DNA of 63,990 bases, counting the filler, from Caldilineae bacterium (GTDB lineage: Bacteria > Chloroflexota > Anaerolineae > DTLA01), in NCBI GenBank assembly GCA_037446815.1. It is 11 parts of 11 records of this genome, joined end to end, with 100 filler letters (N's around TTAATTAATTAA, not from the genome) between each part and the next. Parts side by side here need not be neighbours in the genome. Positions count along the whole stretch, not along the records: positions 6,177 to 12,210 come from JBBIHX010000171.1; 10 more parts are not named here. One strand, written 5' to 3'. How positions within the stretch are numbered: the stretch's first letter is position 1; each line of letters begins with the position of its first letter. Positions 3,656-59,960 of the stretch are shown piece by piece. A program made the translations under genes and the position numbers. The notes under the pieces were generated by a model, which made no database searches, was not told where the DNA came from, and saw only the letters and a list, made by a program, of their open reading frames with translations.

Positions 3656-6028
3656 ATGGCGGTAGATCTCACCTCAACGGTCGGCCTGTTCAGCATCCTG
3701 GATGGCACCGTCCAGGACGAAGCCCCTAACCTGCTGGTAACGCGCGGGCCGCTGGATGCCCAGGGGCGCGAAGCGGGCCAGTTGGCCATCGCCGTGGAAC
3801 TCGTGGGCCGCTCCCTGGGCGAAGAGGAGATGTACGAGGAACTCCTCCAGGCCATCAGCGACGCCTACTTCCGCCATCCGGGCAACATCACCGCGCGCCT
3901 GCAAGAGGCCATCCAGGAGGCCAACGCGCTCCTCGTCCACGCCAACGCCGCGCTCCTGCCGGAGGAGCGCCTTCTCGGCGGGGTTACCTGCGTCTTCCAC
4001 ATGGGGCAGGATGTGTACATCGGCCAGGCGGGCCCCGCCGTGGTTTTCCTGGGGCAGAAAGGCGCCCTGCGCCGATTCCCGGAATCCTCGCCCTGGCTCC
4101 AGAAGCCGCTCCCCAGCGCCCCGGAGCGCCTCTACCCCGCGCCCCTCGGCGTCCACGCCACGGTGCACGCGAACCTGTTCCACGCGACGGTGCAGCCGGG
4201 CGACGTCCTCGTCCTGGGCACAACCGCTCTGGCGCACACCGTGGCGACGAAGGCCGTGGAGGAGGCGGTCTTGTTCCAGCCGATAGAGGATGCGCTGTAC
4301 AACCTGGCGCGCCTGTGCGGCGATGCGGAGGTCGCGTGCATGGTCATCCTCGTCCACGCCAAGGGCGAGCGGCCCGCCGTCGCAGCGCCCGCGCCGGCCG
4401 CTCCTGCCGCTCCTGCCGAGGAACCCGCCGAACCCGAAGCGCCGCCGGAGGCGGAACCGGCGGCCCTGCCGGAAGAAGCCGCACCGGAGGCCGAATTGGC
4501 GGAAGAAGACCTGCTCCCCGCCGACCGGGAGACAGCCGCCGAGGCGCTCGCTCCGGGACGCCCCGCTCCCGCCGCGCCCGACCTGGAGGAGTTGCCCCTG
4601 CCCGAAGAAGCGGCCGAGGCCGAAGAGGCAGAGTTGCCCGCCGCGCCCGTCCGCGCCCCCTCGCGGCCCGCAAGGGGCGGCTTCTCCCTCTTGGGGCTGG
4701 GTCGCGCCCTCCGCAGGGGCCTTCGCGCGTTCTTCTCGGATGTGGCGTTGGGGTCTGCCGTCGTCGCGGGCTGGCTGGCATCCCTGTTTCGCCGGAAGCC
4801 GCGCCCCGTCGCCGCCCGCCCGCGCCCCGCGCCCGCCGCCAGAGCGGCAAGGCCGGCGGTGCGGCGCCTGTGGCTACTGCTCGCCATCGCCATCCCGCTG
4901 GTCATCATCCTCATCCTGGTAACGCAATTGATCCAGTCCAAGCAGCGCCTCCAGCGCTACGACGAACTGCTGCGCCTGGCCGAAAGCAAGGCGGCCCTGG
5001 CCCAGAGCGCCCCCACTGCCCAGGAGAAACAGACGCTGCTCAACGAGTCGCTGGTGCTGCTGGGGCAGGCGCGCGCCATCGGCCCCCATGACCCGCGCGC
5101 GGCGCAAGTGGCCGCCCAGGTGCAGGCGACGCTGGATCAGGTGGAGGGCACCGTTCGCCTTGACCCGCCGCTCGTCCTCTACCAACCTCCCGCCTCGGAG
5201 CAGGCCGCCCTGGACGGGCTTGTCATTGCCGGGTCCGACCTGTACCTGCTGGACGCCAAGAACGCGCGGCTGATTCGCAAGACGCTGGACGAGACGGGCG
5301 TGGGACTGCAGCCGGACCAGGGCGCGCCCACCATCGTGGCCCGCGGGGCTACCGTCGGGGGGTACGCCGTCGCAAACCTATGGAAGATGGCGTGGGCGGC
5401 CGCCATGGACAACCGCGCGTCCAGCGGGCTCCTCGTGGCCACCGCCGACCGCCGACTGCTGGAGTACAGCCCCCGGCGCGGATTGAGCCTGCTCGCGCTG
5501 GCCGGCACCGACAAATGGCAACAGCCCGCGGCCATGGCATCGTATCGGGGCAATCTGTACGTGCTGGATGCCGGGGCGAATCAAATCTACCGCTACTCGC
5601 CCACCGCGGGCGGGTACGAGGCTGCTCCTGACGATTGGTTCGCGCTGTCGCAGGCCCGCGACCTGCGAGGCGCAGTGGACATGGCCATTGACGGCGCCAT
5701 CTACATCCTGTACGGCGCCGGCCGCCTGGAGAAGTTCATGCGCGGCGACAAGCAGCCCTTCTCGCTGGAGGGCCTGGCCCAGCCGCTCCAGCAGCCAGTG
5801 GCCCTGTACACCGACGTGGACGATGAGGCGAAGCACGTGTACGTGGCCGACCCGGGCGCGCAGCGCGTGGTGCAGTTCGCCAAGGATGGCCGATTCGTGC
5901 GGCAGTTCCGATTCCGCGAGGGGGATTTCTTCGCGCGCATCACCGACCTGCGCGTGGACGAGGCCAGCGCGCGGTTGTATTTCACCGCGGGCGACGCGCT
6001 GTACGTGTGCGCATTGCCCCGGCCGTAG
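3656..6028 (+). CDS. membrane protein: degenerate PP2C-like domain, Pro/Glu/Ala linker, TM helix, NHL-like beta-propeller
   Basis: PP2C-like pattern (RLQEAIQEANALL, VYIGQAG, PLG, QPGDVLVLGT); TM LWLLLAIAIPLVIILILV; repeats LYLLD/LYVLD/IYIL/VYVAD; strong RBS. Confidence 0.7.
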   Translation: MAVDLTSTVGLFSILDGTVQDEAPNLLVTRGPLDAQGREAGQLAIAVELVGRSLGEEEMYEELLQAISDAYFRHPGNITARLQEAIQEANALLVHANAALLPEERLLGGVTCVFHMGQDVYIGQAGPAVVFLGQKGALRRFPESSPWLQKPLPSAPERLYPAPLGVHATVHANLFHATVQPGDVLVLGTTALAHTVATKAVEEAVLFQPIEDALYNLARLCGDAEVACMVILVHAKGERPAVAAPAPAAPAAPAEEPAEPEAPPEAEPAALPEEAAPEAELAEEDLLPADRETAAEALAPGRPAPAAPDLEELPLPEEAAEAEEAELPAAPVRAPSRPARGGFSLLGLGRALRRGLRAFFSDVALGSAVVAGWLASLFRRKPRPVAARPRPAPAARAARPAVRRLWLLLAIAIPLVIILILVTQLIQSKQRLQRYDELLRLAESKAALAQSAPTAQEKQTLLNESLVLLGQARAIGPHDPRAAQVAAQVQATLDQVEGTVRLDPPLVLYQPPASEQAALDGLVIAGSDLYLLDAKNARLIRKTLDETGVGLQPDQGAPTIVARGATVGGYAVANLWKMAWAAAMDNRASSGLLVATADRRLLEYSPRRGLSLLALAGTDKWQQPAAMASYRGNLYVLDAGANQIYRYSPTAGGYEAAPDDWFALSQARDLRGAVDMAIDGAIYILYGAGRLEKFMRGDKQPFSLEGLAQPLQQPVALYTDVDDEAKHVYVADPGAQRVVQFAKDGRFVRQFRFREGDFFARITDLRVDEASARLYFTAGDALYVCALPRP

Positions 6029-6056
6029 GGGCGCGATTCAATTGCGCCCCCACGGA

Positions 6057-6076
6057 GAGTCGGTTTCATCTTGTGT
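6057..6076. mobile_element. MITE terminus at contig end
   Basis: GAGTCGGTTTCATCTTGTGT, identical to the terminus at 51565. Confidence 0.75.
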
Positions 6077-6176
6077 NNNNNNNNNNNNNNNNNNNNNNNN
6101 NNNNNNNNNNNNNNNNNNNNTTAATTAATTAANNNNNNNNNNNNNNNNNNNNNNNNNNNNNNNNNNNNNNNNNNNN
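6077..6176. other. artificial contig linker (also 12211-12310, 18327-18426, 24421-24520, 30438-30537, 36417-36516, 42362-42461, 48283-48382, 54151-54250, 60017-60116)
   Basis: N44-TTAATTAATTAA-N44 with stops in all frames, identical ten times; contig lengths decrease monotonically. Confidence 0.99.
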
Positions 6177-6228
6177 GGCTTCGCCGCTCAGAATGACAGT
6201 AGATGCCAACAGACTTTGGAACCGAATC
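6177..6228. mobile_element. MITE right part at contig start
   Basis: GGCTTCGCCGCTCAGAATGACAGTAGATGCCAACAGACTTTGGAACCGAATC; the first part matches the copy near 50176-50211. Confidence 0.8.
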
Positions 6229-6306
6229 CGCCTCTCGCGCCTTTCTCCCTTATCAAGCCGCTCGTCCCGCGCTATATCCCTTGCAATCGCACACAGGAGG
6301 TTTGCC

Positions 6307-8166
6307 ATGGCCCAAATCCGCATCACCAACGCATTGGACGCGGCGCTGGTGCCCGGCGCGGCGCGCGAGGTAGAGGTAACCCTCATCCGCCCTGGCCTGA
6401 GCCTCAACGGGTGGCTGTGGACGCCGGAGGTGTTGGCCGAGGCCGCGCCGCTGTTTGAGGGAGCCACCGCCCTCATGGATCACGCCCCGCCGGGGCAGCA
6501 CCCATCGGTACGCCAGGCGGTGGGGGCCTACCACTCGGTGCGCGCCACGCCCGACGGGCTGAAGGCGCGGCTGGCGTTTCTGCCGTCGGCCAGGGACGCA
6601 TGGCGGCTGGCCCGCGATTGCGTCCTGGCGCGCGAGCAGGGCCGCCCCACCCCGAACGTCGGCATCAGCGCCGACGTTACCGTGGAATCACGGCCGGTCC
6701 GCTACGGCGGGCGCCCGGCGCGCCTGGTGGAACGCATCGCCGCCGTCCATTCCGCCGACATCGTCCTGCACCCCAGCGCCGGCGGAAGTCTGGACCGCAT
6801 CACCGAAGCCTACGACGTGGCGAGGCTGGAGTTGCGCCGCGGAGCCGCGCAGGACACAGAGGAAGGAGCGAATGAAATGAAGAAGACGAACGAGTCGCTG
6901 AATCGGCAATCCGACTTTCCCAACGGTGAGGCGTCTCCCGCAGAGGAGAGAGAAACCCTTGCGCCGGCGTCCCGCCCCACGGGCCTGGAGACGGCCAAGC
7001 CCCTGGCCGCCCGCGAGTGGACGGGCAACGCGCCCACCGTCGCCATGGGCCTGAGCCCCGACGATGCCGTGCGCGCGGCGTGCTATCGGGCCTTCGGCAT
7101 CGCGCCGGAGCACTGGGAGCAGGAACTGCGCGCCGCCGAGAGTCGCCTGGGCAACGGGCGCGTGCGGCCGTTCCTGGGCCTGCGCGACCTGTACGTTCAC
7201 ATCACCGGCGACTATGCCATCGCGGGGCACTTCTGGGCGCGGGCCCAGGAGGCCGCCATGCTCACCACCGACCTGCCCAACCTGCTGGCCGACACCCTGA
7301 ACAAGAAACTCCAGGTGGAGTACAACCACTACCCCCAGGACTGGCGCAAGTGGTGCAGCGTCGTTGCCATCCCCAGCCTGTCGGAGCAGGACAGCGTGCA
7401 GCTGGACGATCTGGGCGCGCTGCCGGAAGTGGCCGAAGGCGATCCCTACACCACCGCCGAGTTGGATGAGTTCAAGGCGTCGTACACGCCGCACAAGTAC
7501 GGCGAACTCATCACCATCACGCGGGAGATGATCCTGCGCGACGACCTGCGCGGCCTGGCGCGGATTCCGGGGAAACTGGCACAGGCCGCCGCGCTGCGCC
7601 TCAACGACACGGTGTACGGCCTGGTGGAGGACAACACGACCATCTACGACGGGCTGGCGCTGTTTCTGGGGACAACGGCGAGAGGCGCGGCGGGCAATCT
7701 GGCGTCTGGGCCGCTGGACTCGGAGGCACTGGCCGACGCGCTGAGCAAACTTCGGCGCGTGCGGGGCGGGGCCAACGCCAGCCCCATCGTATTCCGCAAG
7801 GTGTGGCTGGTGGTGCCGCCGGCGCTGGAACTCACCGCCGCGCAACTCTGCGGGAGCGCCTATGCCTGGGGCGGGCAGGAGCCGCCCGCGACCGGCTATA
7901 ACTTCTTCCGCCAGAGCGGGCTGGACTACATCGTCGCTCCCTGGAACGACTCGCAGGAGAAGTGGTGGATAGTGGGCGATCCTGCCGACTGCGCCGGTCT
8001 GGAAATCGGCTTCGTGCAGGGCGTGGACTCGCCGCAGTTGTTCATCCAGGACGACCCGCGCGTGGGCAGCGTCTTCACCCACGACCAAATCTCGTACAAG
8101 GTGCGATTTGAGTTTGGCGCGGGCATCGTCAACTGGCGGCCCTTTGTGGGATACATGGGGGCATGA
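6307..8166 (+). CDS. phage-type prohead protease fused to a major capsid protein (Mu gpT-like, HK97 fold)
   Basis: Protease part: IRPGLSLNG, MDH, VGISAD, SADIVLHPSAGG. Capsid part: TDLPNLLADTLNKKL, KYGELITITREMILRDDL, LVVPPALE, YKVRFEFGAGIVNWR. AGGAGG RBS before ATG 6307. Confidence 0.85.
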   Translation: MAQIRITNALDAALVPGAAREVEVTLIRPGLSLNGWLWTPEVLAEAAPLFEGATALMDHAPPGQHPSVRQAVGAYHSVRATPDGLKARLAFLPSARDAWRLARDCVLAREQGRPTPNVGISADVTVESRPVRYGGRPARLVERIAAVHSADIVLHPSAGGSLDRITEAYDVARLELRRGAAQDTEEGANEMKKTNESLNRQSDFPNGEASPAEERETLAPASRPTGLETAKPLAAREWTGNAPTVAMGLSPDDAVRAACYRAFGIAPEHWEQELRAAESRLGNGRVRPFLGLRDLYVHITGDYAIAGHFWARAQEAAMLTTDLPNLLADTLNKKLQVEYNHYPQDWRKWCSVVAIPSLSEQDSVQLDDLGALPEVAEGDPYTTAELDEFKASYTPHKYGELITITREMILRDDLRGLARIPGKLAQAAALRLNDTVYGLVEDNTTIYDGLALFLGTTARGAAGNLASGPLDSEALADALSKLRRVRGGANASPIVFRKVWLVVPPALELTAAQLCGSAYAWGGQEPPATGYNFFRQSGLDYIVAPWNDSQEKWWIVGDPADCAGLEIGFVQGVDSPQLFIQDDPRVGSVFTHDQISYKVRFEFGAGIVNWRPFVGYMGA

Positions 8167-8174
8167 TAACGGCA

Positions 8175-8284
8175 AGGTGCGACGCGCTTCAGAAGTGCGT
8201 CGCACCTGACCTCACGGCAGAGACCGCGGAGAGTGCGCAGAGACCTTGCGGAATCTCCGCGGTCTCCTTGCGCCCTCGGCGTGA
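8175..8284. repeat. two intergenic palindromes between convergent genes
   Basis: AGGTGCGACGC...GCGTCGCACCT (8175-8207; family also near 30307, 42108, 54028) and GAGACCGCGGAGA...TCTCCGCGGTCTC (family also at 13299-13376). Confidence 0.75.
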
Positions 8285-8292
8285 AAGCCGCT

Positions 8293-9327
8293 TCAGCGGG
8301 GCGATTCGGGGAAAGATGCCTCGTGCGGCCCCAGCGCCAGCGGCAGGTACAATCGCTCCTCGGGATGCAGATACCCCACATGCCGCACGCGGTACACGCC
8401 GCCCGCGGCGTCATCGCGGTAGGCGTGAACGCGCACTAGGCCGCCATCCACATACACGACAAGGAACGTGCTCCGCGCCCCAGGGTCTCCCAGCCCGCGG
8501 GCGTGCCCTGCGTCAATCTGCCACACGCCGCCGACGCGCGCGGCGCTGAAGTTGTGCGTGTGGCCACAGACGTAGGCCCGCACGCCTGCGCTCTCCAGCA
8601 GCGCCCAGAATCGGTCCCGGTGGGATGGGTACGCGTTCAGGCTGTCGTAGGCATGGCGCAGGCGGCCATTGTCGGCGTCGGGGAGCGGATACGCCGGCTC
8701 GTGCCCGAAGACGAAAATGTGCTCCTGTGTTGTCGCGGCAAGGTCGGCCGCCAGCCAGTTGTACAGATGGTCGGGGATGTCGCCATCAGTAACATGGTCG
8801 CCTGCCGCGTCGCAGTATTGGTTCAGCACCACGAAGTGCGCATTGGCGTAGTCAAACGAATACGTGGTGGTGGGGCATCCCGTCGGGCCTGGATTGACCG
8901 CCCCATAATCGTAGGTATTGAGCCAGGCCAGGTTCGCCCCGAAGGCCGGTTCGCGGCCCTGCCCGGGCAGTTCGTGATTGCCGACGACGGGGTACCAGGG
9001 GATCGCGCCGAGGGTGCTCGTGATGGTCCAGTACGCGCCCGCCACGGGATCCATATCGCCGGGGGTAACGAGGAACGCTGCGCCCAACGGCGCGAGGGCC
9101 TGCGTCGCCCCGCGAAAGTACTGTGGCCTGTCGTACACGCCCGGGCCGGCGTAGTAGCGCATGTCCGCGGCCACGGCGAACGCAAAGCGCGTCTCGGCGG
9201 CAGGGTAGGCATCCGGCGGGCCGCCCGTGCCCGCAGACGCCGCGACAGCGAGCAGGAGCAGCGCCATGCCCAGAAGCACACACCAGGTCGCCTGTCGCCC
9301 GGCACCGTGGCGCTGCGCCGCGTTCAT
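8293..9327 (-). CDS. secreted calcineurin-like metallophosphoesterase with C-terminal LYLPL motif
   Basis: Hydrophobic signal peptide; AADMR, PGDMD, VGNHE, FGHEP, CGHTH; GAGGTG RBS before ATG 9327. Confidence 0.85.
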   Translation of the reverse strand: MNAAQRHGAGRQATWCVLLGMALLLLAVAASAGTGGPPDAYPAAETRFAFAVAADMRYYAGPGVYDRPQYFRGATQALAPLGAAFLVTPGDMDPVAGAYWTITSTLGAIPWYPVVGNHELPGQGREPAFGANLAWLNTYDYGAVNPGPTGCPTTTYSFDYANAHFVVLNQYCDAAGDHVTDGDIPDHLYNWLAADLAATTQEHIFVFGHEPAYPLPDADNGRLRHAYDSLNAYPSHRDRFWALLESAGVRAYVCGHTHNFSAARVGGVWQIDAGHARGLGDPGARSTFLVVYVDGGLVRVHAYRDDAAGGVYRVRHVGYLHPEERLYLPLALGPHEASFPESPR

Positions 9328-9337
9328 CCCGCGCACC

Positions 9338-9570
9338 TCACATCTTCACTGCCCGCGTGGCGATGAACATCGGCATGTAGCGGTTGAGGGGTTCGGCGCT
9401 ATCGAGCGGGGGAACCACGCCTTGGGCACGGGGCGGGTGGGCGTGAGGAAGATGTCCCAGCGGCCCATGCCGGCGTCGGCGATGGCATCGGGGCCGACGG
9501 GCACCGTCCAGATATTGCCGCGTTCCACCTGGAGATCCCAGGCGCGGCGGTTATGGGCTCGGATGTCCAT
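9338..9570 (-). pseudogene. class I SAM-dependent methyltransferase remnant with internal deletion
   Basis: N-terminus MDIRAHNRRAWDLQVERGNIWTVPV...LTPTRPVPKAWFP joined out of frame to C-terminus EPLNRYMPMFIATRAVKM*; SAM-binding core absent. Confidence 0.7.
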
Positions 9571-9715
9571 GAGGCACTCCCTCTGCGGCGTGAGGACCTG
9601 TGGCGCGCCCGTCGCTCCCACACGAATCTACGCTTGGGGTAGGCGCCACGCCGGAGCCTGTGCGAGCCCCCGACGCAGGCCGTGCGGCGTCCTCGGGCGC
9701 GGCCTCACAATGCCC

Positions 9716-10207
9716 CTACTGCGTGTCGTCCGGGCTGGCCTCCTCGCCGACGGCGACGGGGATGGGCGGGGCCACCTGCGACGTGCCGCAGTACGGGCAC
9801 ACGTTCCACTTCAGGTGCAGCAGCCGCCCGCAGTGAACACACGGCTTGCGCAGTTTGGTGTGGCAGTTGGGACACACCATGTAGTCCGGCTGAACAGGTT
9901 GCTTGCAGCCGGGGCACGCCTGCTTCTCCTCAATGTCCTGCAACAGCGCCTCTTCTTCCAGCGCCCGCTCGTAGGCCTCGGCCAACGTCTCCTTGGGCCG
10001 CAGGATGAGGTAGATGACCAGGCCGGGGACATTGAACAGCAACACGATGAGCGCGGCCAGGATGTGAGCGAAGACATCTCGCGAACGCGACCGGATGTCG
10101 CGGTAGGTCCACACCACAAGGCTCAGGGTGAAGGCCACGAAAAAGCCGCTGAGCACGGCTACCAGAATCTGCACGATGGTGATGAGGTTGTTGATCAAGT
10201 TGGACAT
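9716..10207 (-). CDS. membrane protein with double zinc ribbon
   Basis: Two TM segments then CPGC, CPNC, CVHC, CPYC. Confidence 0.85.
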   Translation of the reverse strand: MSNLINNLITIVQILVAVLSGFFVAFTLSLVVWTYRDIRSRSRDVFAHILAALIVLLFNVPGLVIYLILRPKETLAEAYERALEEEALLQDIEEKQACPGCKQPVQPDYMVCPNCHTKLRKPCVHCGRLLHLKWNVCPYCGTSQVAPPIPVAVGEEASPDDTQ

Positions 10208-10295
10208 GTCAGGGTTCCTTCCTCCTGCCGGAACGATTCATGGCGGGCATTATACCATTCTTCGGCGAAGTTGTCATTTTTCGCGCCGCGCGCCC

Positions 10296-12209
10296 CTACC
10301 CCCGCGCCCGCTGCAAGTGCACCAGCAGCGCGGCGATGTCGGCGGGGTTGACGCCCGACAGGCGCGACGCCTGCCCTACCGTCGCCGGCCGCGCCCGCGC
10401 CAATTTCTCCTTCGCCTCGTTGCGCAGGCCCGTCAGCGCCGCGTAGTCCAGGTCCGCCGGAATGCGCATCTCCTCCAGGCGGCGGGCGCGCTCCACCTGC
10501 TCCCGCTGCCGCTCTATGTACCCCGCGTACTTCGCCTCAATCTCCACCTGCTCGCGCGTGTAGGCGTCCAGGGGCGCGGGCGGCGGGCAGATTTCGGCCA
10601 GCACGTCGTACCGAGCCTCCGGCCGGCTCAGGAAAAGCAGCGCGTTCACGCCATCGGACAGCGGTTCCAGGCCATGGCGCGACAGAATGGCGTTGGTCTC
10701 CGCGTCGGGGCGCAGGTATGTCGTCCGCAGGCGCGCCAGTTCGTCGCGGATGGCCGCCTTCCGCGCCAGGCGGTGCTCATACTCCTCCCGCGAGATGAGG
10801 CCGCACTCATAGGCCACGTCGGCCAGGCGCAATTCGGCGTTGTCCTGCCGAAGCAGCAGGCGGTACTCGGCCCGCGAAGTCATCAGGCGGTACGGCTCGT
10901 CAATTTCCTTCGTGATGAGGTCGTCTATCATCACGCCGATGTAGGCCTCGTCGCGGCGCAGGATGATGGGCGGCTTCCCCTGCACCTGGCGCGCGGCGTT
11001 GATTCCCGCGATGATCCCCTGTCCGGCCGCCTCTTCGTACCCCGACGTGCCGTTGATTTGCCCCGCCAGGAACAGCCCCTCCACCAACTTCGTCTCCAGC
11101 GACGGCAGAATCTGGTCCGTGGGCACGGAATCGTACTCAATGGCATAGCCGGGGCGCATGATTTCCGCATTGCGCAGCGCGGGGATGCTGTGGAGCATGG
11201 CCCGCTGCACGTCCTCGGGCATGGACGTGAAGAACCCCTGCACGTACACCTCGCCCGTGAGGAACCCCTCCGGCTCCAAGAAGATTTGGTGCGACTCCTT
11301 GTGTCCGAAGCGGACGATCTTCTCCTCAATGGACGGGCAGTAGCGCGGGCCGGCGCCCTCTATGAACCCCGCCGCGATGGGCGAGCGGTGCAGGTTCTCG
11401 CGCACGATGCGATGCGTCTCAGCGTTGGTGTACACCAGGTAGCAGGGCAGTTGGGGCCGCCAGTCCGTCTGCCGAGGGATGGGGTACACCGAATTCGGCG
11501 GCGGCAGCGGAATCTCCACCGGATTCAGGTCGCGCCGACGGCTGAAGTAGAGTGGGATCTCCGAGCCGATTTGCGGCGTGGTCTGCGAGAAGTCAATCGT
11601 GCGCGCATCCACGCGGGGCGGCGTGTTCGTCTGCAGCCGCTTGAGCCGGAACCCCAGGTCGCGCAGGCTGGCCGACAGGCCCACGGCGGGGAACTCCCCC
11701 GCGCGGCCCGCCGGATGGCTCCATTCGCCGCTGAGCACGCGCCCGGCCAGGAACGTCCCCGTCGTCAGCACCACGGCGCGGCCGTAGTACAGTTGACCGG
11801 TGGACGTGGCGACGCCGCGCACGCGCCCCTTCTCCACCAGCACGCGCTCGGTCAGGGCCTGCTTCAGGTGCAGGTTGGGCGTGGCTTCCAGCGTGAGTTT
11901 CATCGCCAGCGAGTACAAGCGCTTGTCGGCCTGGGCGCGCAGGGCCTGCACCGCCGGCCCCTTGGACGAATTCAGCAGGCGGATTTGGATGAACGTGCGA
12001 TCGGTGTTGCGGCCGATTTCGCCGCCCAGCGCATCCACCTCGCGCACCAGGTGCCCCTTGGCCGGCCCGCCCACGCTGGGGTTGCACGGCATCTGCGCGA
12101 TGAGGTCCAGGTTCATGGTGAGCAGGAGCGTGCGGCAGCCCATGCGCGCCGCCGCCAGGGCCGCCTCGCACCCCGCATGTCCCGCACCCACTACGATGAC
12201 GTCGTACAT
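10296..12209 (-). CDS. mnmG: tRNA uridine 5-carboxymethylaminomethyl modification enzyme MnmG/GidA (starts at the contig edge)
   Basis: [61 protein letters not shown]. Confidence 0.97.
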
Positions 12210-12333
12210 CNNNNNNNNNNNNNNNNNNNNNNNNNNNNNNNNNNNNNNNNNNNNTTAATTAATTAANNNNNNNNNNNNNNNNNNNNNNNNNNNNNNNNNN
12301 NNNNNNNNNNTGTTATTCGTGGATACAACCCTC

Positions 12334-13093: not shown

Positions 13094-13261
13094 ATGTGCG
13101 ACGGACACTCTCACGATAGGCCAAGCGTCAGCGACACCGTTCAGAACCTGCGTCAGCCTATGCCGCTGGGCCGGAAGATTCGCCTGTTCATCCGCAACAA
13201 CTGGAAAAAGATACGCACGGGCCAATCCTGCTGCGGCAACTATGGCGAGCCAGGCTGCTGA
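13094..13261 (+). CDS. small Cys-rich protein (55 aa) ending CCGNYGEPGC
   Basis: GGAGGGG RBS before ATG 13094; ends in TGA. Confidence 0.7.
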   Translation: MCDGHSHDRPSVSDTVQNLRQPMPLGRKIRLFIRNNWKKIRTGQSCCGNYGEPGC

Positions 13262-13298
13262 CGGGCCGCTCCGCCCCGTGAGGGCGAGTAGGAGAGGC

Positions 13299-13376
13299 TT
13301 TCACCGCGGAGCGCGCGGAGAACGCAGAGGTATACAAGGTCTTCTCTGCGCTCTCAGCGGTCTCTCCGCGGTGAAA
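13299..13376. repeat. imperfect long inverted repeat
   Basis: TTTCACCGCGGAG...CGCAGAG / CTCTGCG...CTCCGCGGTGAAA. Confidence 0.75.
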
Positions 13377-13399
13377 CAAGGTTGCCAGAGGTTTGAACC

Positions 13400-14728
13400 A
13401 TGCTGATCATCGTGAGCGACTTGCACTTTCGCGACGGGACGGCGGGGGAGCATAACGCTTCCCCGCGGGCGTTTGAGGGTTTCCTGGAGGCGCTCGCCGC
13501 CGCCGCGAGAGCGATGTGCGCCCGCGAAGTCAAAATCCTCTTCCTCGGCGACATCTTTGACCTTCTGCGCACCGAACTGTGGTTTGACGTGCCCGAATCC
13601 GAGCGCCCCTGGGGACTGCCCGCGGGGGCGACGGACGCGCTGGAGCGCCACGCGAACCGCATCTTGGACGCCATTCTGGAGCATCCGGTGAACCGCGAAA
13701 CCTTCGCTCTGCTGGGCGGGAGCCTAAAGGAGCGCTTCCCGCTGTTCCCCGCGGAGCCGGAACGCCTGTATGTGGTGGGGAATCACGACCGACTGTGCGC
13801 GCAGTTCCCGTCGCTCTTGCGCAAGGCCCAGCAGGCCCTCGGCGCGGCCCCCGGCCCCGTGCGGCACGTGTACCGCGACCCGCGCTACGGCGTGCTGGCG
13901 CGGCACGGGCACGAGTGGGATGTGTTCAACTACGAGGGAGGGCCTGCCCTCTCCGACGAGGACTACGTGCAGGTCCCCATTGGGGATGTCATTGCCACCG
14001 AAATGGTGGCGTGCCTTCCCTACACCATCATGAGGCATTCCAAAATCCAGAGCCTGCCCGAGGCCACGCAGAAGGCCCTGCGGCGCAACCTGCAGCAGAT
14101 TGAAAACGTGCGCCCTCTCCATGCCGCCCTCCATTGGCTCTTCTACCAGGTCCAGCAGCACGAGTGGCTGCGCAATGTGGTGGAGGAGGCCATTGACGAG
14201 ATCGTGGCCCAGTTCAGCGACCTGCCCTTCGTCCGCGACTGGTATCGCCGCCACGACCGCTGGCCCAATCCGCTGGACGAGGCCGACCAGATTCAGACCA
14301 TCCTGTTCGTGCTGGACAAGTTCCGCGTTACGCGCATGGGGGGCTTGCTGTCCCTGGCCGAGGCGCTCAAGGGAATCCGTCCCAAGCCCGCCGAGGAGGC
14401 CGCACGCAAGGAGGCCGCGGAGTTGGGCCCGGATGTGTACTACCTCGTCTACGGCCACACGCACCAGCCGGTGCAGGTCCCGCTTCAGATTCGCGAGACC
14501 GCCGACGGCAGGCCCGTGGAACAGGTGTATATCAACGCGGGGTTCTGGGGCACGCGCCACGTGGAGGCCGCCGGGGGCGGGTTTGTATCCTGGAAGCAGA
14601 TGGCCTACGCCATCTTCCACGCGGAGGACGAGGACGCGCCGCCCGGTCAGGAGCGGCGGGGGTTCCCGTCATTTGAGACTTGGTCGGCCACGCTCAAGGA
14701 AAGCCTCACCTGGCCGCCGGTGGGGTGA
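13400..14728 (+). CDS. metallophosphoesterase family protein
   Basis: VSDLH, LGDIFD, VGNHD, HGH, YGHTH. Confidence 0.85.
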   Translation: MLIIVSDLHFRDGTAGEHNASPRAFEGFLEALAAAARAMCAREVKILFLGDIFDLLRTELWFDVPESERPWGLPAGATDALERHANRILDAILEHPVNRETFALLGGSLKERFPLFPAEPERLYVVGNHDRLCAQFPSLLRKAQQALGAAPGPVRHVYRDPRYGVLARHGHEWDVFNYEGGPALSDEDYVQVPIGDVIATEMVACLPYTIMRHSKIQSLPEATQKALRRNLQQIENVRPLHAALHWLFYQVQQHEWLRNVVEEAIDEIVAQFSDLPFVRDWYRRHDRWPNPLDEADQIQTILFVLDKFRVTRMGGLLSLAEALKGIRPKPAEEAARKEAAELGPDVYYLVYGHTHQPVQVPLQIRETADGRPVEQVYINAGFWGTRHVEAAGGGFVSWKQMAYAIFHAEDEDAPPGQERRGFPSFETWSATLKESLTWPPVG

Positions 14729-24355: not shown

Positions 24356-24420
24356 GATTCGGTTTCAAAGTCTGTTGGCACCTACCGTCATTCTGAGCGG
24401 CGAAGCCGCGAAGAATCTCG
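24356..24420. mobile_element. second MITE directly after the duplicated target (partial)
   Basis: GATTCGGTTTCAAAGTCTGTTGG then GTCATTCTGAGCGGCGAAGCCGCGAAGAATCTC. Confidence 0.8.
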
Positions 24421-24520: not shown

Positions 24521-24885
24521 CGTGCAATCCGCGTTATCCGTGGATGTGGCCGAGCCCTATTCGCGCGGATTCGTGCTATTCGTGGATACCGTCTCGGCCC
24601 TCGGCGGTGAGCAAAGTGGCCGCCATGCGCCTACCCTTAGCGCGGCGGCTTTAGCCCCGCGCGGCCATGCGCGCACAACCCTCACCCTATTCGCGTTCCT
24701 TCGCGGTTCTGGTGCTGTCATTCTGAGCGGCGAAGCCGCGAAGAATCTCCCGCCCGTCCGTGCAATCCGCGTTATCGGTGGATGCAAGCCCCGAGATGCT
24801 TCGCCTTCGGCTCAGCATGACAGGAGGGGGACAACGTGCGACGCACGTTCTATTCGCGCGGATTCGTGTTATTCGTGGATACCGT
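24521..24885. repeat. mosaic intergenic repeat cluster
   Basis: CGTGCAATCCGCGTTATC twice, TATTCGCGCGGATTCGTG(C/T)TATTCGTGGATACCGTC twice, GTCATTCTGAG...CTCAGCATGACA palindrome. Confidence 0.75.
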
Positions 24886-46050: not shown

Positions 46051-46293
46051 CTGTCATTCCGAGCCGCGAAGCGGCGAGGAATCTCGTTGACCGAGATGCT
46101 TCGCCTTCGGATCAGCATGACATGAAGGGGCTGTCATTCTGAGCCGCGAAGCGGCGAGGAATCTCGTTGAGCGAGACCCTTCGCTTCGCTCAGGGTGACA
46201 CAACGAGGCTGTCATTCCGAGCCGCAAAGCCGCGAGGAATCTCGCTGAGCGAGACCCTTCGCTTCGCTCAGGATGACACAACGAGGCTGTCAT
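46051..46293. repeat. tandem array of three 78-80-nt REP-like palindromic units
   Basis: CTGTCATT(C/T)GAGCCGC...GAGGAATCTCG...TGACA starting at 46051, 46131 and 46209. Confidence 0.85.
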
Positions 46294-50077: not shown

Positions 50078-50225
50078 AACTCGGTTTCATCTTGTGTTGG
50101 GCTGCCCGCACGCCGCCTCCCCGCTCTGTCATGCTGAGCCGAAGGCGAAGCATCTCGGTCAGCGAGATTCTTCGCGGCTTCGCCGCTCAGAATGACAGTA
50201 GATGCCAACAGCCTTCGCGCGAGTC
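50078..50225. mobile_element. MITE with degenerate right end
   Basis: AACTCGGTTTCATCTTGTGTTGG...GTCATGCTGAG/CTCAGAATGAC...CCAACAG; no clear target duplication. Confidence 0.65.
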
Positions 50226-51564: not shown

Positions 51565-51714
51565 GAGTCGGTTTCATCTTGTGTGGGTGAACCGCAGGCG
51601 CACTCTCCTCGTGTGTCGTTGCGAGCGAAGCGAAGCAACCTCACGCCCCGGAGGTTGCTTTGGGCGCTCCGCGCCCTCGCAATGACAAATACCAACAGAC
51701 TTTGAAACCGAATC
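51565..51714. mobile_element. complete 150-bp MITE, target duplication 7/8
   Basis: GAGTCGGTTTCA...TGAAACCGAATC flanked by CGCGCCTG and CGCGTCTG. Confidence 0.88.
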
Positions 51715-51737
51715 CGCGTCTGGCTGCCCCACCCCGC

Positions 51738-59488: not shown

Positions 59489-59960
59489 CCCGGACATTCA
59501 CCATCGGCGCTCCATCCGCCTGTCGGCTGGGATTACAGCAGCGCGGGGGCGTATTTCGGAGTCGGTTTCAAAGTCTGTTGGTATCTACTGTCATTCCGAG
59601 CCGCGAAGCGGCGAGGAATCTCGCCCCTCACCCCAGCCCTCTCCCGAAGGGCGAGGGCGTATCGCCTTCGGCTCCGCATGACAGAGCGGGGAGGCGGTGC
59701 GCCGTACAGACCAACACAAGATGAAACCGACTCGTATTGTGTAACGATTTGCGCCCGGGGATGGCGAATCGGTTTTCGGCCATGCGGTGGACGGCGACAT
59801 GAAACGGAATGCCTGGGGCGATGTTGTTGCGGGATGTTGGCGGGACCTGCCGTGCCATTTCCCGACCGCGTGCTTGGGCGCGTTTGTGGTGATGCCCAAC
59901 CACGTGCGTGGCATCGTGTGGTTGAACCCCCCGCCCGAACCCACGGGGCGCAATCCGTGG
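59472..59960 (+). pseudogene. REP-associated tyrosine transposase (RAYT/Y1) pseudogene, frameshifted and interrupted by a MITE
   Basis: HHRRSIRL, frameshift, GWDYSSAGAYF, [MITE], VTIC, frameshift, FG...CWRDLPCHFP...FVVMPNHVRGIV (HUH motif decayed). Confidence 0.85.
59559..59733. mobile_element. complete 175-bp MITE with perfect 12-bp TIRs
   Basis: GAGTCGGTTTCA...TGAAACCGACTC flanked by GTATTTCG and GTATTGTG. Confidence 0.88.

Follow-up and report, generated by a model that had tools for sequence, protein, structure and literature searches.

A protease-capsid fusion gene in a Caldilineae bacterium: candidate head gene of a dispersed, gene-transfer-agent-like particle system in Chloroflexota

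We have analyzed a stretch of 63,990 nucleotides (nt) from the Caldilineae bacterium assembly GCA_037446815.1 (Chloroflexota; Anaerolineae), hereafter the window, and in it a gene of 619 amino acids (aa) that codes for a prohead protease fused to a major capsid protein. The window is made up of 11 contigs, each of about 6 kb and placed in order of falling length, with joiners of the form N44-TTAATTAATTAA-N44; the 10 spacers are found at 6077–6176 and then at 12211, 18327, 24421, 30438, 36417, 42362, 48283, 54151 and 60017, and since the window consists of joined contigs, adjacency across a spacer carries no meaning. The contig of the fusion gene spans 6177–12210 (JBBIHX010000171.1) and the ATG of the gene lies 130 nt from its left end. 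The features of this contig are the following.

6177–6232, no strand: dispersed host repeat, probably of the miniature inverted-repeat transposable element (MITE) or repetitive extragenic palindromic (REP) type, at the left contig end (blastn copies, depth, contig breaks)
6247–6278, plus: promoter-like element, CCCTTATCAA at 6247–6256, 17-nt spacer, TATATC at 6273–6278 (upstream alignment, pattern search)
6295–6300, plus: ribosome-binding site AGGAGG, 6 nt ahead of the ATG (sequence)
6307–8166, plus: protease-linker-capsid fusion gene, 619 aa and stop (stop-free translation, relatives, PHROG)
6346–6816, plus: predicted prohead-protease (assemblin) fold domain, about aa 14–170 (AlphaFold2 model, Foldseek, invariant residues)
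6817–7011, plus: linker, about aa 171–235 (alignment, substitution ratios)
7012–8163, plus: predicted HK97-fold major capsid domain, about aa 236–619 (Pfam, AlphaFold2 model, Foldseek)
8176–8266, plus: two strong hairpins (8176–8206 and 8220–8266) between convergent genes (RNA folding)
8293–9336, minus: metallophosphoesterase (Pfam Metallophos)
9716–10207, minus: double-zinc-ribbon membrane protein (Pfam DZR)
10296–12209, minus: MnmG/GidA, starting 1 nt from the contig end (Pfam GIDA, E 7e-157)

An earlier note, made from the sequence alone, had reported here an uninterrupted frame with a strong ribosome-binding site, prohead-protease and Mu gpT-like capsid motifs, a MITE end upstream, and palindromes with convergent host genes downstream, and all of these were recovered in our analysis. 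The four protease motifs are present in the protein (MDH at aa 57–59, GISAD at 119–123, SADIV at 149–153 and PSAGG at 156–160), and the whole product matched the PHROG families phrog_29592, phrog_4523 ("major head and protease protein") and phrog_133, the last two with E values of 5e-47 and 4e-44.

The N-terminal part escaped the curated protein families. Over aa 1–310 the Pfam search returned nothing at E<=10 except a chance match to DUF4129, with no protease family (S78/U35, S77 or similar) among the results, and none of 20 stand-alone homologues of the domain had a Pfam match; phrog_29592, a family of unknown function, was its sole family match (E 1e-20). An AlphaFold2 model built on 25 diverse members (mean predicted local distance difference test score, pLDDT, 88) resembled the T4 gp21 protease (5jbl) in Foldseek (E 5e-4, probability 1.00, TM 0.50–0.57). 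In a VIA comparison the Z score against T4 gp21 was 10.4 over 132 residues, versus 6.3 for the next unrelated fold, with herpesvirus proteases at 9.1 (varicella-zoster virus) and 7.3. H59, G73, G119 and S121 were invariant across 25 diverse homologues of 30–41% identity. The family is large: a search of 1.84 billion representatives gave 742 matching clusters at E<=1e-3, and family members are either stand-alone proteins of 160–240 aa or fusions to Phage_capsid_4, the fused form being common. Because no curated protease family matches, we file the domain by its fold and not as a member of a Pfam protease family; on its predicted fold and conserved residues it is probably a prohead serine protease of the assemblin type. 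The linker that follows is hypervariable in length and sequence in the alignment of homologues, and is probably scaffold-like or removed by cleavage.

The C-terminal part was matched by Pfam Phage_capsid_4 (PF25209; aa 314–613, E 1.3e-38, 134.2 bits against a cut-off of 27) and weakly by Mu-like_gpT (E 1.7e-4, 21.5 bits against 20.1), with no match to an encapsulin family at E<=1. The model of aa 225–619 (pLDDT 80) had 389 PDB chains as Foldseek matches at E<=1e-3 and is predicted to adopt the HK97 fold. The best were the capsids of Muddy, NF5, SaPI1, HK97 and Mu, all at probability 1.00; tailed-phage capsids took ranks 1–33, including at rank 16 the capsid (PDB 9gyi) of a capsid-forming phage-inducible chromosomal island (cf-PICI). 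Encapsulins followed at ranks 34, 47 and 49 and the capsid of the Rhodobacter capsulatus gene transfer agent (RcGTA) at rank 48. PDB searches by sequence gave no meaningful match, whether the profile covered the whole protein or the N-domain, and a scan of IMG/VR viral contigs with the alignment found no relative.

At the left edge the contig starts in a repeat of about 55 nt (6177–6232), of which blastn found seven more copies, full or partial, elsewhere in the window (24356–24407, 50176–50211, 59557–59609, 107–129, 24715–24737, 51692–51717 and 46131–46152), several of them close to contig ends. In the public run X1 the summed depth was 1627 over the repeat versus 10.8 over the gene. Many public contigs end or diverge at the repeat, several at 6225–6232, and no public DNA contig placed on the window bridges it. 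This is probably a MITE/REP-like element that fragments the assembly, and because the assembly breaks there, 130 nt from the ATG, the "solitary" state of the gene is not demonstrable in the window: the claim of the note that the contig has no portal or terminase gene covers 6 kb only. Genome-wide statements below all rest on four relatives, the metagenome-assembled genomes (MAGs) G001–G004, not on the window's own genome, and distances between loci in them are minimal estimates.

We have examined orthologues of the fusion gene at two loci from species genomes and 11 from metagenomes, plus a further genome locus (L033). Twelve full-length relatives of the fusion protein have 77–91% identity, and at 77–95% identity orthologues in related Chloroflexota genomes and metagenome contigs of up to 70 kb have cellular genes on both sides. 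In the 60-kb contig L001, the 10 kb to each side contain cellular Pfam families only, among them a kinase, a threonine-synthase-like PALP protein, an ECF sigma factor, PIN/MazE, a STAND NTPase, a metallophosphoesterase, Fe-S proteins and an MFS transporter. The same is true of the 10 kb upstream and 10 kb downstream in L011, which has a second arrangement, with genes for a DHOD-B-like, a GltD-like and an unknown protein, HicA, the capsid protein, an Fe-S protein and a sensor kinase; this synteny is repeated in five independent assemblies (L002, L008, L009, L010 and L033). L007 has the arrangement of the window and also breaks just upstream of the gene, and in the most divergent locus (L012, 77% identity) small unknown frames surround it. 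The capsid gene is a single-gene unit amid cellular genes in at least three different contexts. A 439-aa gene upstream in L011 was considered as a portal remnant and rejected, having no similarity. The conserved synteny with mnmG that the note had raised did not appear; the metallophosphoesterase is the sole window neighbour that recurs, in two other contexts (L001 and L007), and is missing from the L011-type loci. No neighbouring gene was conserved across contexts as a candidate cargo. Among 60 relatives of G001, close capsid orthologues occur in 3 genomes and distant ones (27–35% identity) in 9.

The surroundings of the capsid locus in relatives resemble a variable, defence-island-like neighbourhood. 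In L001 a nSTAND5-TPR NTPase (7153–9597, minus) is accompanied by a 142-aa gene of unknown function (6721–7149, minus); toxin-antitoxin pairs are found in L001 (PIN/MazE, 5621–6314) and in L011 (HicA, 9376–9826).

As a control we have annotated four loci of the same genome group with distant homologues of the fusion protein (27–35% identity; L034–L037). In three of the four (L034, L036 and L037) the fusion gene lies directly 3' of a portal gene (phrog_10963); a gene like that of the large terminase (TerL) precedes the portal in L036 alone, and L035 has no portal adjoining the fusion gene. Protease-capsid fusions are also known from thaumarchaeal proviruses (Krupovic et al. 2019; PMC6563490). 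The protein studied here has the same composition as these tailed-phage and provirus fusions, with a prohead protease domain, a linker and an HK97-fold capsid domain, but unlike the clustered ones it is encoded by a single-gene unit amid cellular genes.

A truly lone gene was first suggested because the first Pfam searches for packaging genes in G001 came up empty: Portal_Mu, Phage_portal, Terminase_6N and TerL_ATPase found nothing there (Portal_Mu also missed all the controls), and the Phage_portal and Terminase_6N matches in G002 were at other places (L005 and L006). The queries that found partners were PHROG or phage-derived sequences from the three clustered modules L034, L036 and L037. 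All of G001–G004 have an intact portal gene, at 92–100% identity, whose 387-aa product matches phrog_10963 (E 2e-23); among the 60 relatives it occurs in 4. It lies 4.6 kb (L012) and 9.5 kb (L011) from the capsid gene, on the opposite strand. A large terminase (Terminase_6C), 52–55% identical to the TerL of the clustered phage-type module, was likewise found in all four genomes. Its neighbours are dnaG-rpoD in G001 and a gene for a papain-like protease in both G002 and G003, and it shares with the phage-type TerL conserved motifs of Walker-like (ATPase-like) and nuclease-like type. Up to five further genes at other loci (p97, p140, p204, p675 and p301) are spread unevenly over the four genomes. 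Three of the five have homologues 3' of the capsid gene in the clustered modules, namely p204, p675 and p97 (the last with p140 behind it). A frame of 909 aa over p204-p675 was placed by the Atlas with a "phage tail protein" cluster at a score of 0.93, which is a lead only, and neither p204 nor p675 received a Pfam or PHROG name. The genes for capsid, portal, TerL and p97 are distributed in G001 over four different contigs of 13–62 kb, amid cellular genes, and no integrase family was among the Pfam matches near any of the four. The stand-alone shell proposed in the note is thus not what the relatives contain: a capsid orthologue is present in three of the four genomes, and an intact portal and large terminase are found elsewhere in all four.

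L012 contains two extra fragments of the C-terminus of the portal (7387–7557 and 9366–9434) between the capsid and portal genes, and a pentapeptide-TIR gene and a DUF559 gene in the vicinity (13174–14343). A 757-aa phospholipase D-like (HKD) protein is encoded divergently from the portal in G002 and G003 (L048:9612–11885, plus; L046:15307–17289), its long frame overlapping the promoter region of the portal. The gene p239, which adjoins the portal in the same two genomes, was left out of the set; it has an ordinary promoter, TTGAC-N17-TACACT, and no phage homologue. In G004 the set is less scattered than in G001–G003, with TerL, p204 and p675 adjacent (L085:2888–7144) and with TerL and p204 each preceded by a motif copy of its own.

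That motif is shared by the scattered genes. When the upstream regions of the capsid orthologues were aligned, about 100 conserved nt were seen to travel with the gene whatever lies further upstream, with CCCTTATCAAC, 16–17 nt, a TAnnnn element, a leader and ACAGGAGG in that order; ACAGGAGG was kept in every aligned region. In the window CCCTTATCAA forms an extended -35-like sequence (hexamer TTATCA, 6250–6255) and TATATC the -10-like one, the motif lying 51 nt upstream of the gene, and no other match to CCCTTATCAA exists in the window even at one mismatch. In G001–G004 the element also precedes the genes for portal, p97, TerL, p204 and p301. A whole-genome pattern search returned 4, 5, 5 and 4 exact CCCTTATCAA sites in G001, G002, G003 and G004, and all 18 lie 58–103 nt before the start of capsid, portal, p97, TerL, p204 or p301, this last a gene of 301 aa newly found through the search itself. 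By our own estimate, the chance of a random site falling in such a place is about 1 in ten thousand. Variants that differ from it at one or two bases were seen ahead of TerL (G002 and G003) and of p301 (G001). The phage-derived genes that bear the motif thus appear to be co-regulated, as far as their upstream sequences indicate.

In addition, between promoter and ribosome-binding site most capsid orthologues have a leader of about 44 nt with an inverted repeat (AATCCGCG...CGCGGAT-like), seen at L001:9930–9990, at L012:3150–3205 and in the aligned loci and absent from the window (6279–6290). It may be an operator or an RNA element.

Selection on these genes was estimated from pairwise comparisons of 4–6 sequences, the value for the Fe-S neighbour being void in G003 (wrong frame). 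At synonymous divergences (dS) of 0.24–0.8, the ratio of nonsynonymous to synonymous substitution rates (dN/dS) of the capsid gene was 0.06–0.16 in the N-domain and 0.05–0.17 in the capsid domain, rising to 0.34–0.73 in the linker; it was 0.07–0.21 for the portal and 0.13–0.16 for TerL. Both domains of the fusion protein are under purifying selection. The pairwise dS values of capsid, portal and TerL rank the genomes alike and resemble those of neighbouring host genes, for example the Fe-S gene. From these comparisons the phage-derived structural genes are, in all appearance, vertically inherited under purifying selection, as the genes of a gene transfer agent are. The view of the note that the gene is kept by the host and is not prophage debris is borne out in this respect: in the long contigs of relatives it has cellular genes on both sides, so that its close homologues do not all sit in complete prophages, and selection on it is not relaxed.

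In our opinion, with a probability of roughly 60%, the gene is the head gene of a vertically inherited, dispersed and co-regulated phage-derived particle system of the gene-transfer-agent-like kind in Anaerolineae-type Chloroflexota. One polypeptide would supply an assemblin-fold prohead serine protease and an HK97-fold capsid domain, with a variable, scaffold-like linker between them. The fusion protein would assemble into a procapsid on a portal ring, the protease would then cut off itself and the linker, and the large terminase would pack the shell with DNA; the production of particles, their packaged content, their release and any transfer of DNA are likewise presumed. In the related genomes each scattered unit, located amid housekeeping genes, lies behind one copy of the promoter-like element (CCCTTATCAA, 17 nt, TAnnnn). 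A set dispersed in this way cannot be packaged as a unit, and no integrase or replication module goes with it; its role would for that reason be that of a gene transfer agent or of some other phage-like particle under host control.

The closest known system, RcGTA, has at least 24 genes at five loci, a multilocus "genome", of which the head-tail genes form one prophage-like cluster with four further loci (Hynes et al. 2016; PMC5026251). The likeness (see also the review PMC8987985) is in phage-derived head, packaging and possibly tail-like genes that are inherited with the host under purifying selection. Both sets also occupy several loci, seem not to be packageable as a unit and have signs of common regulation. 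The two differ in the degree of dispersal: in the present set the genes for terminase, portal and capsid are themselves apart, in units that hold no more than two genes and have a copy each of the promoter-like motif. They also differ in the fusion of the capsid to its protease, in the phylum, Chloroflexota, and in that the system is known here from genes alone; the head-tail cluster of RcGTA has about 15 genes. A bolder version, to which we give slightly less than even odds, is that a gene-transfer-agent-like system was domesticated independently in Anaerolineae-type Chloroflexota, its ancestral phage head-tail module being split into one- and two-gene pieces (terminase; portal; protease-capsid fusion; p97-p140; p204-p675; p301) that private copies of a promoter element unite as a regulon. 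It would then be the most dispersed such "genome" known and the first of its phylum in print; among the literature matches listed we found no published description of a gene transfer agent system of Chloroflexi.

Several observations weigh against a dispersed particle system. The putative particle is known here from genes alone, and the window's own genome is visible leftward only as far as the repeat at 6177–6232. The capsid gene was not found in G004, nor p204 and p675 in G001, all four genomes being MAGs of unknown completeness. A 5'-truncated copy (L016:1890–2600) retains codons 389–618 only, at 86% DNA identity, and an orthologue in L013 is frameshifted near codon 279, in a 2-kb metagenome contig where this may be an error; because such copies exist, the capsid gene can be lost. 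The genes p140 and p301 had no phage homologue in the searches made, and no small terminase, lysis gene or regulator was identified. Searching the remaining 58 kb of the window, which samples little of the genome, revealed neither a portal nor a TerL of this type. The promoter-like element agrees with the sigma-70 consensus at 8 of 12 positions and is not called by a simple consensus scan. The number of CCCTTATCAA sites per genome (4–5) is ordinary among the 60 relatives, and placement alone is special; we have rejected the count as a statistic because other relatives have 0–13 sites.

Among the alternatives, the one that survives best is a helper-dependent or defensive element, in which host-kept head and packaging genes would act on an infecting related phage, perhaps by hijacking its tails or poisoning its assembly. 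Capsid, portal and TerL are the set carried by capsid-forming PICIs, and the capsid domain has a cf-PICI capsid among its fold matches. The absence of the tail-like p204 and p675 from the G001 assembly, the toxin-antitoxin pairs and STAND NTPase beside the capsid locus in relatives, and the presence of related clustered modules in genomes of the same group also agree with it. However, cf-PICIs are contiguous mobile islands with an integrase, and the genes described here, in spite of the shared capsid, portal and packaging functions, are scattered with no integrase nearby and could not move as an island. Besides, the tail-like p204-p675 and p301 carry the same motif in G002–G004, and divergence that tracks host genes indicates long vertical descent and not a mobile satellite. 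We consider this explanation unlikely.

Less likely still is that the window's own copy is the last gene of an ordinary prophage located left of the contig break. The contig does begin at a repeat so close to the ATG, and in the clustered modules it is the portal that lies directly upstream of this type of gene. Against it, no phage head genes were found upstream of the orthologues in L001, L002, L008–L012 and L033 (over 2.4–10 kb), the window shares its downstream metallophosphoesterase with L001, where the upstream gene is the STAND NTPase, and the gene, like the units at the dispersed loci, is preceded by a promoter motif of its own (51 nt away).

An encapsulin-like self-maturing compartment, in which the fusion protein alone would form a cargo shell used by the cell, was the proposal of the note and now seems quite improbable. 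As with encapsulins, an HK97-fold gene stands by itself at its place in the chromosome and selection maintains both of its domains, and encapsulins do appear among the fold matches. Unlike encapsulins, it has a protease domain, no match to their family and no conserved cargo neighbour (the metallophosphoesterase, read from its translation, starts with a hydrophobic leader), and 33 tailed-phage ranks precede the first encapsulin. Above all, a lone shell is unlikely because portal and terminase share its promoter motif and selection regime; a cargo shell needs neither of them. A multi-part, probably DNA-packaging particle fits better than a compartment. The idea that these are functionless old prophage remnants, rearranged and not yet decayed, is the weakest: it could invoke the truncated and frameshifted copies, the extra portal fragments and the narrow distribution of close relatives (capsid in 3 and portal in 4 of 60), but with dS reaching 0.8 the capsid, portal and TerL genes have dN/dS values of 0.05–0.21, frames are intact in four species-level genomes and every unit keeps the promoter motif, which makes it hardly tenable.

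If the dispersed gene-transfer-agent-like system is real, it would represent a new and independent domestication of a phage in a hard-to-culture phylum whose members abound in sediments, hot springs and reactors, and it would mean that a particle gene set can survive the total loss of clustering provided that its pieces keep a common promoter. The 10-base motif offers a direct handle on the regulator and on the full gene set, and the self-contained protease-capsid fusion a simple test object for self-maturing shells. For annotation, the lesson is to weigh "orphan" capsid, portal and terminase genes of such genomes jointly before dismissing them as debris or labelling them encapsulins.

Downstream of the fusion gene, the region 8176–8266 folds at -78.2 kcal/mol (z -8.5). 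The two hairpins lack a T-tract and were not called in a terminator scan; they are probably terminators or host palindromes, and similar GAGACCGCGGAG palindromes are found 3' of the orthologue in L001. The truncated copy in L016 sits between a CbiQ gene and a PIN gene, so that one lineage has lost the gene. In a sister group of the fusion protein (about 52% identity; P0014–P0018 and P0020) the linker is longer and helical, and in P0020 (917 aa) HTH-XRE domains are joined to the capsid domain. In L014 (3–1208 and 1219–3165) an Amidase_2 gene, endolysin-like, ends 10 nt ahead of the capsid gene.

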